DNA of 63,412 nt, filler included, from Collodictyon triciliatum (Eukaryota): assembly GCA_043381765.1 (NCBI GenBank). It is 24 parts of 24 records of this genome, joined end to end, with 100 filler letters (N's around TTAATTAATTAA, not from the genome) between each part and the next. Parts side by side here need not be neighbours in the genome. Positions count along the whole stretch, not along the records: positions 29,177 to 31,721 come from JBHJMP010008688.1; 23 more parts are not named here. One strand, 5' to 3'. Within the stretch, counting starts at the first letter, position 1. Each line of letters starts with the position of its first letter. A model generated the notes under the pieces. That model was not told the origin of the DNA, ran no database searches, and was given only the letters and a program-made list of their open reading frames with translations. The position numbers and the translations under genes were made by a program. Shown here piece after piece: positions 15,831 through 32,060 of this stretch.

Positions 15831-16037
15831 NNNNNNNNNNNNNNNNNNNNNNNNNNNNNNNNNNNNNNNNNNNNTTAATTAATTAANNNNNNNNNNNNNN
15901 NNNNNNNNNNNNNNNNNNNNNNNNNNNNNNTCGATCAAACAACAGCCAATTGCGTGAAACCGTTTATCCCTATGTGGAAATTATATTTATTTCTCTGCCG
16001 AGTGTGCCAATTGCCGACGTGGTTGTCATCCAGCCGG

Positions 16038-16604
16038 CTAAACCCTCAACCGAATCACCTCCAAATCCTGCTTGATGGCCAGGGCGTAGAACTCGTCATC
16101 TTTCAGCGGCTGTGCATTCTGCCCACGATTAGCCGTTAGTGCAAGCCACACCTGGATGTCCTCGAGCGTGACCCGCTTGGGGAAGGCGTGAGTCGGGGCG
16201 TAGACAAAGTAGCAGGCGTCTTCGTTTGTGGCAAAGCGACCGGGCAGCTTGAACGAGACGGATTCGTGCGGCTCGAGCGGCTGGATGCGGCGATAGCGAT
16301 TGTAGAAGATATCTGCGGATTGGGGGGTTTTGCCAGAAAGCTGATCGGGCTGATCAGCTCGCGGCCCACACATGACGTTTCCGTGATAAGACTTGCGCGT
16401 AGAGTTGACCACTTGGATGGACGGCATATATCCGAGCCACGCAGACACGTAGTACATGGCTATGGTGAAGAGCACAAGGCCTGCAAGGAAGATCAGCGGG
16501 CCGTATCTGCTTGTTCTCTGCTCGAAGGCTTCCACCGGGTCAGGCTCGGCTGCGTCCACAACAAGTCCCTCGCGCGGGTTGCGGCGCTGATGTAGTTGAT
16601 TCAT
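16038..16604 (-). CDS. Single-pass membrane protein of unknown function (intronless; likely start MNQLHQ)
   Basis: GC-rich ORF with TM segment PLIFLAGLVLFTIAMYYVSAWLGY. Confidence 0.6.
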   Translation of the reverse strand: MNQLHQRRNPREGLVVDAAEPDPVEAFEQRTSRYGPLIFLAGLVLFTIAMYYVSAWLGYMPSIQVVNSTRKSYHGNVMCGPRADQPDQLSGKTPQSADIFYNRYRRIQPLEPHESVSFKLPGRFATNEDACYFVYAPTHAFPKRVTLEDIQVWLALTANRGQNAQPLKDDEFYALAIKQDLEVIRLRV

Positions 16605-16815
16605 GTTTGGCGGCTTCTGTGCGTTTCTCCGCGTCTCTATCGTTTGTGTGAGTGGATAAAAGAAGCAGCTCTGGGCGATAATGACGGGGCAGATTTGTTT
16701 CGTTTGAGATTCATCTGCGAAAGTCTGGCGTGTGGTACCGTACAAGTAGTAAAGGATATAATGTGCAGATTAATACGTCACCACTTTTGATATTCAGAAG
16801 AATTGTCGTAAATGA

Positions 16816-16930
16816 AACGAGGAGTATGCCAATCGAAAGATTGGTAAACCTGGTGCGCTAGTATCCAAGGTCTCACCACTTTTTCACAAAGGCCGTGTAG
16901 AGGTGAAGGCTGCCAGGAAAGACCCGACAG
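16816..16930 (-). ncRNA. Putative Fanzor omegaRNA scaffold, copy A
   Basis: 3' segment shared with copy B; stems TTCAC/GTGAA, GGTGAGACCTTGG/CCAGGTTTACC and CCAATC/GATTGG. Confidence 0.55.
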
Positions 16931-17538
16931 CCTGTTTTTTAGAGGAAGGTGTAGGCTATTTTGAATGATTAAAAGAACTTTCTTGAGTGTATTTTTAGCG
17001 CTGTTAAAGTCCCTTGTCAAGAATACACTTTGTTTGCTTTCTGAGCGATTGCATTCTTAACATATGAGACGTCTATACATCTTTTTTGAATTTCCTCTCA
17101 GTTTCATATATTCCAGTTCTTATTCGCAGTTACAGCACATCTTGGATGTTTTAAATTCACCTACACTAACTGTTTCAAAACGTTTGGATAGTATTTTTTG
17201 TAATCCTCTTCCGATTATTGGCGTAAAATGGTTCATATGACATTTTCTGCTCCAGTATCCATACGCTAGTACAACATCCTTGCCAAATGTCTTTTCGATT
17301 CGGTTCATAAACAATTGCTCAATTCTTTTTGTATTAAAATACTGCCTCCATATCATCTTTGGAAAAGTCCCTTGTTCATAAAATATGGATAATTCTATCT
17401 GGTATCTTGATTTCATTCATACATATTTTCGAAATATTTCATAATCGACCGTGCATGAATAACGTTTACTCAGTTTTGTCTCTAAATCGATTAAAGATGC
17501 TCTTGATGTCTCAAACCGCTGATTCTCTTCAAAAGTCC

Positions 17539-17639
17539 TGAGACCAAAAGAAAAAAAAAATTTTTTTGGTTTCTTTTCAACAGTTTATTGAGAGAAAACA
17601 AAGCCGAGGAAACCGCCTTCGCAGTGAGACCAAAAGAAA
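17539..17639 (-). mobile_element. Short retroposed insertion (71 bp) with 15-bp target-site duplication
   Basis: TGAGACCAAAAGAAA occurs at 17539-53 and 17625-39. The insert has AATAAA and an A-rich tail on the minus strand and is absent from copy B. Confidence 0.75.
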
Positions 17640-18903
17640 TAGCACTTTGTAAACCTGTTGCAATCCATACCTCTGAAGCATTGTACTTTTTCTTTCTTTC
17701 TCGCGCAAGAGTATTTTGTGATTTTTAATAGATTTGCTATCGTGTCTTCTTTTGTTGTGTCGTGCAACGTACTTTCTTACCTGTCTCATCCACCATGTAA
17801 ACCAAATAAACTTGCCTGCGTCCACTCCAACTATATATTTTTTTCGCTAATAAAGATAACTGCTCTTCGGAAAGTTCATATATATATAAACACATTCTCG
17901 GTACTTTTGATTATATTTGAATTTTGAATTTGAAATACCTTTCTTTTCAAACAATAATGACAACGCCAAGCCGTCTGTTTGTATCATGTATTCAAAACTG
18001 TAGTCCCTTTGACGAAAGACCTTCTCTTCATTTCAAAGAAATTATCCCATAGGGTCTCTTTGCATCCTATTATATTCTTCATTAATGATGTTTTCCTAGA
18101 TAATACTAATATCTATCAAACATGCAGTATCTAGAGTAATATGACATTATATTGTTAGTTACTTATAGAGATTGATTGAAGCAGTTTGGCTTCAATGTCC
18201 TCAAAAAATGCGATTCATGTAAATAAGACATGGAATGTACTTATTTGGATTGACTTTGACGTCATATTCGATACCTTTCACAACATCGCTGAAAATGACA
18301 CGATGCAAATGCATTTTAGCCCATCCTTTATGTTGTTCCGGTATACCGAGTTTCTCGAAGATGGCTTTATTTTTTCCTTTATTCGATTCAAAGTGCAGCG
18401 AGGTTATGCCATACAAAGGGGCGGGATGGGAGCGCATGGGAGAGAGCAAACGCGAGTAGGAGAAGACACTACCGTGGAGAGGNNNNNNNNNNNNNNNNNN
18501 NNNNNNNNNNNNNNNNNNNNNNNNNNTTAATTAATTAANNNNNNNNNNNNNNNNNNNNNNNNNNNNNNNNNNNNNNNNNNNNAGAGTGAGAGAGTGAGAG
18601 AGTGAGAGAGTGAGAGAGTGAGAGAGTGAGAGAGTGAGAGAGTGAGAGAGTGAGAGAGTGAGAGAGTGAGAGAGTAAGAGGAAAGGTATATTTAACAAGA
18701 AATAATTTTCATTCTTTTTATAAAAAAAGAAGCATTTTCAAATGAACGTATATTATAAGACACATCATTTTTTAAAACTAGACATATAATTTATCGATTG
18801 TAAAATGTAGACATAAGTACACTTAAAGCTATTCATTAAATGAAACAAAAAAAAAAAAAAAAAAAAAAAACAGAAGGGAATGGCCATGCTAATAAAAATT
18901 TAC

Positions 18904-27015: not shown

Positions 27016-29309
27016 GAGAAACGAAGCGACATTTTCCACAATTGTAGTATTGACACGCAGACAACAAACCCATACAAAGGGTGAATATTTTGTTCTGGAA
27101 TTTATTGTTTTTTCATATGCATGAATTCAAAATTTCGGCTGTGGTATCTGATAATTTTAAAAATATTTTCGAATATATATTTTTGTTACCAGCATATTAG
27201 AGTGGTTGTGAACAAACGAGACACCATGCCAATCTCGAGACTAATGCGTAGAGACACCATAGTGACATATAATCCTGAGGGTTGAAGCAACATTCCCGTA
27301 ATAACGCATCCAAGGCGCTTCTATCGCGGTAGCATGGCCCTATTCTCTCTTCATCACGAGATGCGGTGTCCCTGAAGGACTCGTTGCAGCAGAACCATCC
27401 ACCCAAATCCTTTTCTGCGTTCTTGTATTTTTTTTTATTTTTATATTTGATCATTTGTTGATTCTTTCCTCACATCCGCGGCTGGGTGCATCCGAAATAA
27501 AACGCCACGAGTACCACAAGGCGAAAGTCACATGGCCGACAACCAAAACACATAATTCTGTTCCCTCACACACCCAAACACACATGCACACTCAAGCAGA
27601 AAAAAAAGAAAAAAAAGAAAAAAAGAGTGCTCTGCTGGTATCGGACCAGCCAATCATTTGGTGCGGCTCCTGCAGAACCAAAGAACGCCCTCCGGCAGAC
27701 TCGCCACAGCAAAAGGCAAGGCAAAGCACCGAAGGCGCAGAAGGGCTCGATCGAATGAGGAATCTCGCCACACTTGGGATGGAAGGCCAAAGAGTCAATT
27801 AACAACTCGGTAATCCTTTTGCAAGTCCGCCCTCTATTCCCTTTTTTCTTCTTTTATTCTAGTTTCTCGATCCTTTTCCAAAACGAAATTCCCGATTTCG
27901 AAGTTCGTCTGCGCTGTTTTTCTGATTCGTTGATTGAAGCATTCCTTTCCTTTTCCTTTCTTCCCTTTCCTTTCCCACAACTTTCTTTTCATTTTTTTTT
28001 AATCCAAAACCTCGAATCATATAAAAAAATCAAGAACCAAAAATGTAAAAAAAAGAAAAAAAAGCAGATTCAAATAAAATAATAGATGATTATGGCACTT
28101 TGTTTGGTCCGGCTAGGTTTGGTTCGAATTGGGCTCTGCCTTTGTCTGAGGGCGCTGCGAATGATTTCTGCTCGGCATGAACGCCCAGGCCAGACGAAAT
28201 TCCTTAATAATACGAGCCCTTTGCATCCTTTCGTTTTATTATAATGGTTTTTTTCTCGCTGGTTAGCTTGCTCGTCACCTTGGAGAAAACCACTCGATCA
28301 ACGCACGTGTATCACCCAATCATCCTATTTGATTAGATCTGCTTAAAGTAACAATCTTTTATAATCGATTAAGTCCAATCAACCGGACGGAATCTAGAAC
28401 TGGGCTCGGTTTTCTCGCCTCGGCTGATGCCCGCTCTTGTGAGACCACTTTCATCAACCACCGACAACCACCTCTAACAATTATAATAAATATGCTGATT
28501 CATTTCGATCACCTGGCTCCATCATGTGCTATTGAGATTCTGTTTTTTGAAGAAATCATCGCACGTTATGCAAAGTTGGATGCTTGTGCACATCTCCCTC
28601 TCAAAAGCTCAAAGGGAAATAGATATGTTCCATGCAGCTTCCTTTAATGCCTCCATAGCGTAGTGCTTCGGTGCATCATACCCACCTGATCGTAACGACC
28701 TGCCTCGCATTGTCTTGCGGTCCAACTAAATTCCTTTTTCATCTGTTCTTCTGCACCCTTTTTCCTTCTTCCCATACTTGACTTTTTTGAAAGAGGGTAA
28801 TTACTTGACGCGACCTAAGAAAGAATTGAAGTTTTATATAATTCCTTAAAAAAACGCAATTTGCCTATTTGATTCTATATTCTGCAAACTAAACCATCTT
28901 CTTTTCTTCTTCTTATACGTACCCTTCAGCAAAGTCATGGCTGTAACGCGGGTCGAAAATAATCAACAAATTACCATTTACCTGGTTCCTATGAAATCTT
29001 TTTTTTTTCAACCATCTCTTCATTTTTCAGTTTGCATATTTTTGTCCCATATGAAAAGATATCAGCAAGCTTTGTCNNNNNNNNNNNNNNNNNNNNNNNN
29101 NNNNNNNNNNNNNNNNNNNNTTAATTAATTAANNNNNNNNNNNNNNNNNNNNNNNNNNNNNNNNNNNNNNNNNNNNAAAGAAATAAAAAAGAAATAAAAA
29201 AGAAATAAAAAAGAAATAAAAAAGAAATAAAAAAGAAATAAAAAAGAAATAAAAAGAAATAAAAAGAAATAAAAAGAAATAAAAAAGAAATAAAAAGAAA
29301 TAAAAAAGA

Positions 29310-29356
<47 letters not shown>

Positions 29357-29937
29357 NNNNNNNNNNNNNNNNNNNNNNNNNNNNNNNNNNNNNNNNNNNN
29401 NNNNNNNNNNNNNNNNNNNNNNNNNNNNNNNNNNNNNNNNNNNNNNNNNNNNNNNNNNNNNNNNNNNNNNNNNNNNNNNNNNNNNNNNNNNNNNNNNNNN
29501 NNNNNNNNNNNNNNNNNNNNNNNNNNNNNNNNNNNNNNNNNNNNNNNNNNNNNNNNNNNNNNNNNNNNNNNNNNNNNNNNNNNNNNNNNNNNNNNNNNNN
29601 NNNNNNNNNNNNNNNNNNNNNNNNNNNNNNNNNNNNNNNNNNNNNNNNNNNNNNNNNNNNNNNNNNNNNNNNNNNNNNNNNNNNNNNNNNNNNNNNNNNN
29701 NNNNNNNNNNNNNNNNNNNNNNNNNNNNNNNNNNNNNNNNNNNNNNNNNNNNNNNNNNNNNNNNNNNNNNNNNNNNNNNNNNNNNNNNNNNNNNNNNNNN
29801 NNNNNNNNNNNNNNNNNNNNNNNNNNNNNNNNNNNNNNNNNNNNNNNNNNNNNNNNNTCGTGGCTTGTGTAGGAGCCGCCGACTCTATGATACCATATTT
29901 GTCCGCTTGCTTGGTTATTCCCTTTCTCACGTTTACT

Positions 29938-30050
29938 AACTAGGAATATAACATCTTTCGATTGGTAAACTTGGTGCGCTAGTATCCAAGGTCTCAACAC
30001 TTTTTTCACAAAGGTTACGTAGTGGTGAAGGCTGCCAGGAAAGACCCAAA
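29938..30050 (-). ncRNA. Putative Fanzor omegaRNA scaffold, copy B
   Basis: Homologous to 16816-16930; stems TTCAC/GTGAA, CTTGG/CCAAG and ATC-GAAA-GAT. Confidence 0.55.
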
Positions 30051-31721
30051 AGCATGATTTTCTAGAGGAAGGTGTATACTTTTTATTAAAGGATTAAAAT
30101 AACTTACTTGAGTATATTATTAGCGCTGTTAAAGTCCCTTTATCAAGAATACACTTTGTTTGCTTTCTGAGCGATTGCATTCTTTACTCATGAGACATAT
30201 ATACAACTTTTTTTTGAATTTCCTTTCAGTATCATATATTCCAGTTCTTTTTCGCAGTTACAATACATATTGAGGTTCTAAATTCATACACGCTAACTGT
30301 TTCAAAACGTTTGGATAGTATTTTTCGTAATCCTCTTCTGATTGTTGGCCTATAATTGTTCATCGGACATTTTCTGCTCCAGTCTCCTTACGTCAGTACA
30401 GCATCCTTGCCAAATGCCTTATCGATTCGGTCCATAATCAACTGTTCACTTCCTTTTTGTATTAACATACTGTCTCCATATCATCTTTCGAAAAGGCACT
30501 TGTTCTTAAAATCTGGATAATTCTATCTGGCATCTTGATTTCAGATACATATTTTCGAAATTTTTCATAATCGACCGTGCATGAATTTGTTTACTCAGTT
30601 CTGTCTCTAAATCGATTAAAGATATTCTTAATGTCTCAAACTGTTGATTCTCTTCAAAGTCCTGTGACCAAAAGAAACAGCACTTTGTAAATCTGTTGCC
30701 ATCCATATCCCTGTATCGTTGTACTTTTCTTTTTGCGCAAGAGTATTTTGTGATTTTTAAGAGATTCACTATCATGTCTTCTTTGGTATGCCATGTAGCG
30801 TAATTTCTTACCTGTCTCATCCACCATGTAAACCAAATTAAACCTGTCTGCGTCCAGTCAAACTATTTTTTTTGTCACTAATAAAGATAACTGCTCTTCG
30901 GAAAGCTTATCTGTATAAACATTTTTTTTTTGGTCTTTTGATCATATTTTGGATTTTGAATATGAAATACCTTTCTTTTCAAACAATAATGACACCGCCA
31001 AGCCGTCTGTTTGTATCATGTATTTAAAATTGCAGTCTCTTTGATGAAATACCCTCTTCTTCATTTCAAAGAAATTATCACATAGTTTCTCATTACATCC
31101 TGATATATTCTTCATTAATGATGTTTTTCTAGTTGATACTAATAGACCTATCAAACATGCAGTATCTAGAGTAATATGACACGGTATATTGTTAATTCTT
31201 ATAGAGATTGGTTGAAACAGTTTGGTTCCAATGTCCTCAAAAATGCGATTCATGTAAATCAGACATGGAATGTACTTATTTGGATTGACTTTGGCGTCAT
31301 ATTCGATACCATTTACACTATCCCTGGTCATAATATGATTCAAATGCGGTGTAGTCCATTCTTTATATTGTTCCGGTATTTCAAGTTTGTTGAAGATGGC
31401 TTATTTTTTTAACTTTCGTAGCTCTGCCTTTTTAGTAGCTTCCGTCATATTCTCATCTTTAGGAACTGTTTGATTTATAAAGCGCAGTGACCTCTATACA
31501 AAATGTTCCTTAATGTTATTATGATAAGTTGTTAACATTTGCTCCGCCAAGCGCGGTAATACATGAGACAGTCCAACCAACGGAAAGCGTTCTTCTCGGG
31601 ACAAAAGGAATCGAAAATCAATGAGATACAAAAATCATTATGTCATCTCTCATTTCTGGTTTTTTTTTTTTTAATCTTGCGTGTCTATCTTGTGAAACTA
31701 TTTCCGACTGTCTTTGAAGCG
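29938..31721 (-). mobile_element. Fanzor1-like element, copy B, decayed, running off the scaffold end
   Basis: QMLTTYHNNIKEHF, PCHITLDTACL, MIQTDGLAVSLLF, LDADRFNLVYMVD (RuvC-I Asp at 30852-54), GDWS, YEFRTS (Glu at 30283-85), RDFNSANNIL (Asp at 30134-36). Confidence 0.9.
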
Positions 31722-32060
31722 NNNNNNNNNNNNNNNNNNNNNNNNNNNNNNNNNNNNNNNNNNNNTTAATTAATTAANNNNNNNNNNNNNNNNNNNNNNN
31801 NNNNNNNNNNNNNNNNNNNNNAATACAATACAATACAATACAATACAATACAATACAATACAATACAATACAATACAATACAATACAATACAATACAATA
31901 CAATACAATACAATACAATGCAATCCAAAACTCGCGCTGGTATGATCTTGATAGGATCGACATAGAATGTACAACCATATTGTGTACTCACTCGTTTTTT
32001 TTTTTCAACATCAAATTTTCAACATTTTCAAAAAGCATTTATATATTTAAGCAAATAAAC

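Follow-up and report, generated by a model that had tools for sequence, protein, structure and literature searches.

Decayed Fanzor1 copies, very probably relics of one transposon family, in scaffolds of Collodictyon triciliatum

Two unlinked scaffolds of the eukaryote Collodictyon triciliatum (assembly GCA_043381765.1) carry similar broken reading frames on the minus strand, and a first-pass annotation made from the DNA alone took them for members of a multi-copy family of RNA-guided nucleases related to Fanzor1. Are these two loci really Fanzor1 genes, do they still encode a protein, and what kind of element do they descend from? We analyzed the 63,412-nucleotide stretch in which they lie (hereafter the window, whose positions are used throughout), which consists of 24 scaffolds of about 2.54-2.56 kb each with N spacers between them. 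We conclude with high confidence that the two loci are independently decayed relics of one Fanzor1-bearing DNA transposon family, located at two unrelated places of the genome.

Two homologous remnants and their protein family

Copy A lies in the scaffold at 15931-18482 and copy B in the scaffold at 29177-31721, both on the minus strand. Their extent is given below in the residue numbering of P0001, a protein of 648 residues which is their closest intact relative.

16812..18375, minus strand: copy A, Fanzor1 pseudogene, P0001 residues 180-642, 5'-truncated inside its own scaffold
29940..31721, minus strand: copy B, Fanzor1 pseudogene, P0001 residues 80-642, 5' side cut by the scaffold end

The two copies are homologous with about 84-87% DNA identity. 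The mean column identity of the two minus-strand stretches aligned with MAFFT is 84%, and the blastn matches are 87.4% identical over 723 bp and 85.3% identical over 761 bp, which bears out the earlier estimate of about 85%. When P0001 was searched against the window with tblastn, copy A was found with an E value of 1e-77 and copy B with 1.6e-104, and because of these values their sequence likeness to P0001 is judged to be far above chance. This search gave no match in the window besides copies A and B, and a blastn search of the whole window found no third copy or further fragment. Both copies are colinear with P0001, so that their description as intronless stands, the sole exception being an insertion of 86 bp that is present in copy A but not in copy B or P0001. 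The insertion is bounded by a perfect 15-bp direct repeat, TGAGACCAAAAGAAA, at 17539-17553 and 17625-17639, and arose either by slippage duplication or as a tiny insertion that duplicated its target.

On the 3' side the homology stops abruptly at about 16812 in copy A and about 29940 in copy B, and the sequence further out is unrelated between the copies. A contig of the freshwater metagenome run X2 departs from the copy B stretch at 29942, which confirms the right-end boundary of the element, now seen in two copies and one X2 contig. Separate insertions leave just this signature, a common 3' boundary beside unrelated flanks, and it speaks for mobility. On the 5' side, the shifted frame of copy B continues to the very end of its scaffold (31721) and copy B is therefore cut by the assembly. 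The homology of copy A is lost at about 18375, within the scaffold and about 107 bp short of its end, and the G+C-rich sequence upstream (18376-18482) does not align with copy B. In P0001 numbering, copy A lacks residues 1-179 and residues 1-79 of copy B lie past the scaffold end.

A 152-aa fragment of copy B (30942-31400, minus strand) has three relatives, P0001 to P0003, at 57-59% identity, which bear the precomputed label PF26935. Compared by sequence with the PDB, P0001 matches GtFz1 (E 2.1e-28, query residues 17-272 and 309-569), PpFz1 (2.7e-24) and SpuFz1 (3.7e-23), the next matches being myoglobins at E>0.3, and its first 400 residues align with the N-terminal parts of Fanzor1. The window's own fragments match only these same three proteins at E<=1, with best values of 9e-4 and 1.2e-5, both to PpFz1. 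The fold was studied on P0001 and not on the broken copies. Its AlphaFold model, built with 42 aligned relatives, has a predicted local distance difference test score (pLDDT) of 83.5 and a predicted template-modelling score (pTM) of 0.81. In a Foldseek comparison with the PDB the seven best matches of this model are all Fanzor1 (E 2.6e-28 to 1.2e-24; template-modelling score, TM, 0.66-0.75 by query and 0.61-0.80 by target), and the eighth is Cas12X (E 5e-7, TM 0.34). Judged by sequence and by this modelled fold, copies A and B are remnants of Fanzor1, not of TnpB or Fanzor2. The first-pass assignment to Fanzor1 is thus upheld by the PDB matches of P0001, by its structure prediction and by the matches of the window fragments themselves.

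The solved Fanzor1 proteins, namely GtFz1 of Guillardia theta (9cer), SpuFz1 of Spizellomyces punctatus (8gkh and 9cey) and PpFz1 of Parasitella parasitica (9cf0 and 9cf1), have the same domain order and predicted fold as P0001 and are homologous to it in both the N-terminal and the RuvC parts. They also share its layout, in which the zinc ribbon directly follows a Glu and the old RuvC-II site reads 'G(D/N)W'. In contrast, P0001 is merely 18-21% identical to them, and the FRI insertion of PpFz1 is not evident in it (648 aa against 722-726 modelled PpFz1 residues). The window copies further differ in being pseudogenes, whose ancestral guide RNA and activity we can propose by analogy. P0001 starts with a basic, disordered MKKRKR stretch (pLDDT <50 for residues 1-10); N-terminal nuclear signals are known in Fanzors (Jiang et al. 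2023, PMC10530073).

Conservation was read from an alignment of 42 relatives. D364 (GVDPGK), E555 (NEFRTS), D604, R603, N606 and N610 (RDxNSAxN) and G521 (YGDWS) are invariant in 42/42 relatives. Among the zinc ribbon cysteines C562 is invariant, and C565, C587 and C590 are each kept at 90% or more. All three catalytic codons, for the RuvC-I Asp, the relocated Glu and the RuvC-III Asp, are retained in both copies:

17820..17822, minus strand: copy A RuvC-I Asp codon (D of IVGVDAGKF), in the open reading frame (ORF) 17577..17846, aligned to P0001 D364
17156..17158, minus strand: copy A relocated RuvC-II Glu codon (E of GEFKTSKMCCNC), directly before the zinc-ribbon CxxC, in ORF 17120..17416, aligned to P0001 E555
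17009..17011, minus strand: copy A RuvC-III Asp codon (D of RDFNSAKN), in ORF 16778..17056, aligned to P0001 D604
30852..30854, minus strand: copy B RuvC-I Asp codon (first D of '*LDADRFNLVY', the asterisk being a stop), in ORF 30654..30857
30283..30285, minus strand: copy B relocated RuvC-II Glu codon (E of YEFRTS), in ORF 30232..30387, followed by a frameshift in the zinc ribbon
30134..30136, minus strand: copy B RuvC-III Asp codon (D of RDFNSANN), placed by sequence and alignment to P0001

The Asp-Glu-Asp triad first read from the translations therefore aligns with that of Fanzor. The motif strings quoted at that stage are likewise all present: HNNIKEHF and IQTDGLA(V/L)SLLF in the translations, IVGVDAGKF, YGYWS, EFKTSKMCCNC and RDFNSAKN in copy A, and FNLVY, GDWS and RDFNSANN in copy B. 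Some key motif residues are altered, with GYWS in copy A and LDAD in copy B, where the catalytic-loop glycine two codons before the RuvC-I Asp is now a stop. Of the CxxC...CxxC zinc ribbon, copy A retains CCNC and C*EC, the latter interrupted by a stop, and copy B is frameshifted inside the first cysteine pair.

In Fanzors the canonical RuvC-II Glu is described as lost to Gly or Pro, another Glu tens of residues downstream being used instead (Jiang et al. 2023, PMC10530073). In Fanzor1 this Glu belongs to the loop that precedes the TNB domain, and the third catalytic position is occupied by D606 in SpuFz1 and by N658 in GtFz1 (Xu et al. 2024, PMC11423790). P0001 matches this pattern, with G521 at the old site, E555 34 residues further directly before the CxxC, and an Asp at the third site as in SpuFz1. 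E555 aligns with the E of 'DEFRTS' / 'DEYKTS' in PpFz1 and SpuFz1, the relocated Glu of copy A aligns with the E of PpFz1 'DEFRTS', and G521 ('YGDWS') aligns to 'GNW/GDW' of the three solved proteins. The earlier identification of the E of EFKTS as the RuvC-II Glu is therefore correct, with the refinement that this is the relocated Fanzor Glu and that the GDWS position would be, by its equivalence to the site described by Jiang et al. 2023 (PMC10530073), where the canonical Glu was lost. In one metagenomic relative (L004, match 191-2050) the RuvC-III motif reads RNLNSA, with Asn in place of the catalytic Asp, a non-canonical state known for GtFz1 (Xu et al. 2024, PMC11423790).

Decay of the copies, sister copies and the wider family

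Each copy was aligned to P0001 with a frameshift-aware method, in which the lesion counts vary somewhat with the gap penalties. Copy A has 457 matched codons, 280 of them identical (61.3%), with 12 frameshifts and 5 stops, and copy B has 556 matched codons, 326 of them identical (58.6%), with 11 frameshifts and 6 in-frame stops. Each copy thus carries about 17 lesions, none of which is common to A and B, as the earlier description of copy-specific lesions had it; the 11 in-frame stops of the two copies together arose by substitution. Over the 451 codons common to A and B there are 237 nucleotide differences, distributed 77/75/85 on codon positions 1/2/3 (chi-square p 0.70), and over 443 codons the ratio of nonsynonymous to synonymous changes (dN/dS) is 0.76, which by rough standard errors is not clearly below 1. 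This even spread and the dN/dS value point to neutral decay. Because the copies have no lesion in common, and because of these two values, we consider that they descend from an open ancestor, were inactivated independently and then drifted as junk. An open frame for an active nuclease is absent in both. By the evidence of their reading frames, copies A and B are Fanzor1 members by descent that no longer work, and neither is able to make a protein today.

To look for sister copies we aligned the contigs of four sequencing runs to the 1784 bp of copy B at a likeness of at least 80%. X1 and X3 are small organism-labelled runs from one study, and X2 is the freshwater metagenome; the fourth run was X14. 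In each of the 13 public runs containing any of the sampled words of copy B, the share of these words is at most 0.12, and there is no RNA run among the 13. X1 gave 311 contigs on copy B (30/61/119/101 in the bands 99% and above, 95-99%, 90-95% and below 90%), X3 gave 307 (39/73/99/96 in the same bands) and X2 gave 136; the raw reads of X14 had no match on copy B. In X1, X2 and X3, 30/30 depth bins of copy B are covered, with up to 19 different contigs over one variant place. Across all the contig depth aligned, sense codons stand in place of three copy B stops, namely TAT at 30388 and at 30506 and AAG at 31496. Many contigs have single bases missing or added at, or a few bases from, the copy B frameshifts 30141/30142, 30452, 30271/30272 and 30585/30587. 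Because the contigs are many and diverged, and because several copy B lesions are absent from them, these sequences support an expanded, many-membered family, apparently with less damaged members, in the same or related organisms. The contigs measure 150-450 bp, and the intactness of a single copy is beyond their reach. The first-pass claim of an expanded multi-copy family is accordingly sustained for related organisms (X1 and X3 contigs). The argument it was built on, two copies among 24 small scaffolds, does not stand: these scaffolds are no fair sample, because repeats are plausibly over-represented among the short scaffolds of a fragmented assembly.

How do the copies relate to other Fanzor1 genes? 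A HMMER scan of 1.84 billion representatives found 3147 relatives of P0001 with E<=0.001, of which 537 reach E<=1e-30; the best match that is not a fragment is 48% identical. A word-indexed search gave 104 relatives at E<=0.001, nearly all of them PF26935, with a best non-self identity to P0001 of 41-46%. By sequence and modelled fold, the lineage shares about 18-21% identity with the Fanzor1 proteins studied biochemically and falls inside a large catalogued clade, PF26935/DUF8286. It can be called uncharacterised, as first proposed, as regards its distance from studied proteins, but not as regards the thousands of catalogued relatives. In JGI metagenomes 488 of 596 candidate stretches were confirmed to encode relatives, some on contigs of 157-255 kb, and the best 80 of the 488 (loci L001-L080) were examined further. 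A DDE_3 (Tc1/mariner-IS630) transposase gene is present at 20 of these 80 loci. In a scan of viral contigs, 0 of 36 pattern matches were confirmed as P0001 relatives. Fanzor1 has been reported in fungi, protists, arthropods, plants and giant viruses (Saito et al. 2023, PMC10432273), and up to 122 Fanzor copies per genome have been described, with Mariner/Tc1 among the associated transposons (Jiang et al. 2023, PMC10530073).

This metagenomic PF26935 clade is the closest large group, with the same length and the same invariant residues as P0001. The distance from RuvC-III to the element end is also the same (215 nt in L002, about 200 nt in the window). In contrast, the window family and P0001-P0003 form a subgroup of their own, with about 60% identity within it against about 45% to the rest of the clade, and the window scaffolds have neither a DDE_3 gene nor a similar terminal inverted repeat (TIR). 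Three metagenomic contigs (L001:4626-7950, L002:4635-7952 and L003:173-3503) hold a complete mobile unit of 3.3 kb bounded by TIRs of 32-39 bp, in which a transposase with DDE_3 and helix-turn-helix domains on one strand and Fanzor1 on the other lie back to back. The unit is 73-80% identical among the three contigs, and in L002 it stands beside four tRNA genes on a 254-kb contig.

Several observations weigh against the conclusion that A and B are relics of a transposon family multiplied in the cell. No transposase was found in the window, where two DDE_3 proteins searched with tblastn gave nothing below E 3, and neither scaffold carries a left end or a transposase. The longest listed contig pieces are about 87-91% alike to copy B, so that they represent sister copies in the same or related organisms and not copy B itself, and contig depth is not copy number. 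Runs X1 and X3 would stem from the same organism as the window or from related ones, and no full-length open copy from the source organism was seen in the contigs or the window. On the side of family labels, Pfam (in a local copy that does not include PF26935) gave no relevant family on eight window fragments and none for P0001-P0003, NCBIfam gave none for P0001-P0003, and the PF26935/DUF8286 label of these three and of nearly all relatives is precomputed by the databases (the name coming from the Atlas). Finally, the ten Atlas clusters nearest to P0001 are 92-100% viral, chiefly Nucleocytoviricota, and because of this the family could have a viral rather than a cellular origin.

Could copies A and B then be debris of integrated giant-virus (Nucleocytoviricota) DNA and not a transposon multiplied in the cell? 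Besides the Atlas clusters, one relative (P0172) is named 'Transposase, viral metagenome', and contigs that carry metagenomic relatives are as long as 255 kb. The neighbourhood of L002 holds a ribonucleotide reductase small chain, a 2-cysteine adaptor domain, DUF5755 and the four tRNA genes, surroundings which we take to be giant-virus-like. However, the common abrupt 3' end of A and B with unrelated flanks indicates separate insertions, and the hundreds of contigs from organism-labelled runs, graded in likeness from 80 to 100%, agree with a long-lived repeat family. Pfam scans of the two scaffolds showed no other viral gene. The viral relatives are about 44-47% identical to P0001, and their gene is itself carried by a TIR transposon of 3.3 kb. 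We therefore regard viral debris as an unlikely source of the two copies.

Two other explanations find even less room. If the lesions were sequencing or assembly errors, both loci would be working Fanzor1 genes; the assembly is indeed very fragmented (scaffolds of about 2.55 kb, N gaps) and some frameshifts fall in A/T runs. Errors of this kind do not account for 11 in-frame stops made by substitution, for equal differences on the three codon positions with a dN/dS of 0.76, for the stop in place of the catalytic-loop glycine of copy B, for the absence of the first 179 codons of copy A, or for altered key motif residues (GYWS in A, LDAD in B), and we hold this explanation to be very improbable. 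We give hardly any credence to the proposal that the sequences are prokaryotic TnpB (IS200/605 or IS607) or Fanzor2, for instance from contaminating bacterial DNA. TnpB (ISDra2 8h1j, ISFba1 8iaz) and Cas12f do share the RuvC core with a zinc-ribbon TNB domain, some relatives match the Pfam family Cas12f1-like_TNB (PF07282), and TnpB too has an RNA guide encoded at the 3' end of its gene (PMC11423790, PMC10432273). Fanzor2 (ApmFz2 of mimivirus, 9b0l) is likewise a TnpB descendant of eukaryotes and viruses with a relocated Glu (PMC10530073). However, Cas12f, TnpB and Fanzor2 all match the P0001 model at TM<=0.36, and the solved TnpB and Fanzor2 proteins do so weakly (TM 0.20-0.36, E 6e-5 to 4e-4: 9b0l at E 6.2e-5 and TM 0.21/0.28, 8h1j at 4.3e-4 and 0.20/0.33, 8iaz at 1.3e-4) against 1e-24 or better for Fanzor1. 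The N-terminal half of TnpB is much shorter than here, the first 400 residues of P0001 align with Fanzor1, and P0001 does not have the compact form of about 400-480 aa that marks TnpB and Fanzor2. Most TnpB members have the canonical RuvC-II Glu where a relocated Glu is found here (Jiang et al. 2023, PMC10530073), and Fanzor2 is described as having no long REC/RuvC extensions of the Fanzor1 type (Saito et al. 2023, PMC10432273). NCBIfam, which is a library for naming prokaryotic proteins, gives nothing, and other window scaffolds carry eukaryotic genes, such as one with an ANKRD13 C-terminal domain (E 4e-46).

Copies A and B being relics of a Fanzor1 transposon family, the intact gene would have encoded a protein of about 650 residues with an N-terminal basic tail, WED and REC parts and a split RuvC, in which a relocated Glu of the Fanzor type stood next to the CxxC...CxxC zinc ribbon. 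By analogy with the solved Fanzor1 proteins we infer the guide RNA, the cutting activity, the type of transposase partner and the biological role. The protein would have associated with a transcript covering the 3' end of its own gene together with the element's right end, and the 3' guide of this RNA would have directed cutting of matching DNA next to a short motif, an activity thought to help the transposon persist.

With these data a Fanzor1 transposon family that is decayed yet clearly multi-copy is added for a microbial eukaryote that has been poorly sampled, and is linked to a large Fanzor1 clade on giant-virus-like metagenomic contigs. Multi-copy Fanzor1 in protists, the subject of the first-pass annotation, is already in print, giant viruses included (PMC10432273, PMC10530073). 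As far as these two reports describe it, the finding confirms that Fanzor1 is multi-copy, transposon-borne and widespread in protists and their viruses, and it opens no new question. It is conceivable, though on balance doubtful, that the family is still alive in a little-sampled freshwater protist lineage, since several copy B lesions are absent from sister copies and an intact relative of 648 aa exists at about 60% identity. Intact elements could then encode a Fanzor1 whose identity to any characterised one is only about 20% and whose guide-RNA scaffold and target motif are its own, and the kinship with the giant-virus clade could reflect gene traffic between virus and host. If an intact member were recovered, it would provide a compact RNA-guided nuclease whose sequence is distant from those tested, and an occasion to study virus-host exchange of such elements.

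The 3' tail and a candidate guide RNA

In Fanzor and TnpB systems the sequence encoding the guide RNA lies at the 3' end of the gene and extends as far as the element's right end; that of GtFz1 overlaps the last 17 codons of its gene (Saito et al. 2023, PMC10432273). Copies A and B have in common a tail of about 60 nt past the expected stop, ending at the abrupt boundary. The last codons ahead of this tail fall in a C-terminal stretch (residues 629-648) which is disordered in the P0001 model (pLDDT <50).

16812..16932, minus strand: copy A 3' tail, candidate omegaRNA scaffold, comprising the last ORF codons and about 60 nt of non-coding sequence to the right end, with three predicted hairpins
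29940..30056, minus strand: copy B 3' tail, counterpart of that of copy A, with private mutations that break hairpins

The last 199 nt of copy A (16812-17010) fold with a z score of -2.6, 2 of 200 shuffles being as good. At positions 30054, 30050 and 29997 of copy B nearly all aligned contigs carry the letter of copy A, and on our reading of the sequence these letters would restore pairs in two of the hairpins. From the position of the known guides, it is reasonable to suppose that a guide RNA was encoded at the 3' end of the ancestral element.

In the metagenomic clade a structured RNA of three helices and 17 pairs overlaps the ORF end (e.g. L007:7768-7859 and L002:7824-7899; alignment A6) and is then followed by a conserved UAUUGAUUUUACA box. 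A covariance model of this RNA, R1, was built from 43 dereplicated 3' regions, out of 74 usable ones among the 80 loci; L004 and L015 were left out for want of the search motif, L068 because there is no stop on the locus, and others because they were too short. In R1 96.4% of the pairs are formed, 15 of the 17 pairs show double (compensatory) changes and 0 of 500 shuffles are as good, and slid controls are 33-56% paired. No Rfam 15 family matched in three metagenomic loci. The R1 RNA is probably the omegaRNA scaffold of the metagenomic clade.

Two results count against reading the window tails in the same way. The tail of copy B folds no better than shuffles (z 0.17), and a search of R1 with filters off matches neither copy, all 16 matches (E 0.69-9.8) lying elsewhere. 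In this the window differs from the metagenomic clade with its conserved 3' RNA, and the proposal that the window tail is the same RNA is unsupported. Rfam gave 0 matches at the gathering score on the whole window. A five-sequence RNAalifold prediction of shared hairpins (window tails and L001-L003; 13 of 35 pairs with double changes) was not relied on, as it is one comparison of two groups on a MAFFT alignment.

Sequence beside the copies and on the other scaffolds

Directly beside the right end of copy A lies an open frame which is not part of the element:

16038..16769, minus strand: copy A flank ORF, 243-codon open frame in DNA of 52% G+C

This frame has no Pfam family, no credible Atlas neighbour (best 0.84) and no counterpart beside copy B, and it may represent a host gene specific to the lineage, with a single hydrophobic segment. 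Scaffold ends consist of simple repeats (29177-29356, 31822-31945 and 18583-18690), namely (AAAGAAATAAAA)n, a 10-mer repeat whose frames read 'YCIVL' and another repeat whose frames read 'SLTLSLSH', which fits an assembly that breaks at repeats.

Long frames are also carried by other scaffolds. At 39874-41025 (minus strand) an uninterrupted frame of 383 codons contains the ANKRD13 C-terminal domain mentioned above. A search of 5.8 billion clusters turned up no more than two relatives of it, EukProt transcriptome proteins with identities of 57% and 39%, and such scarce relatives point to a poorly sampled eukaryote, for which 'protist' is plausible. The segment at 45969-47396 has 71% G+C against a window average of about 35%, with long overlapping open frames on both strands, including a minus-strand frame of 475 codons with a weak PP2C-like match (E 0.003, below threshold), and could be a G+C-rich gene or foreign DNA. 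Lastly, a frame of 366 codons at 56155-57255 (minus strand) contains an NHL repeat (E 2.3e-13) together with matches to six-bladed beta-propellers.

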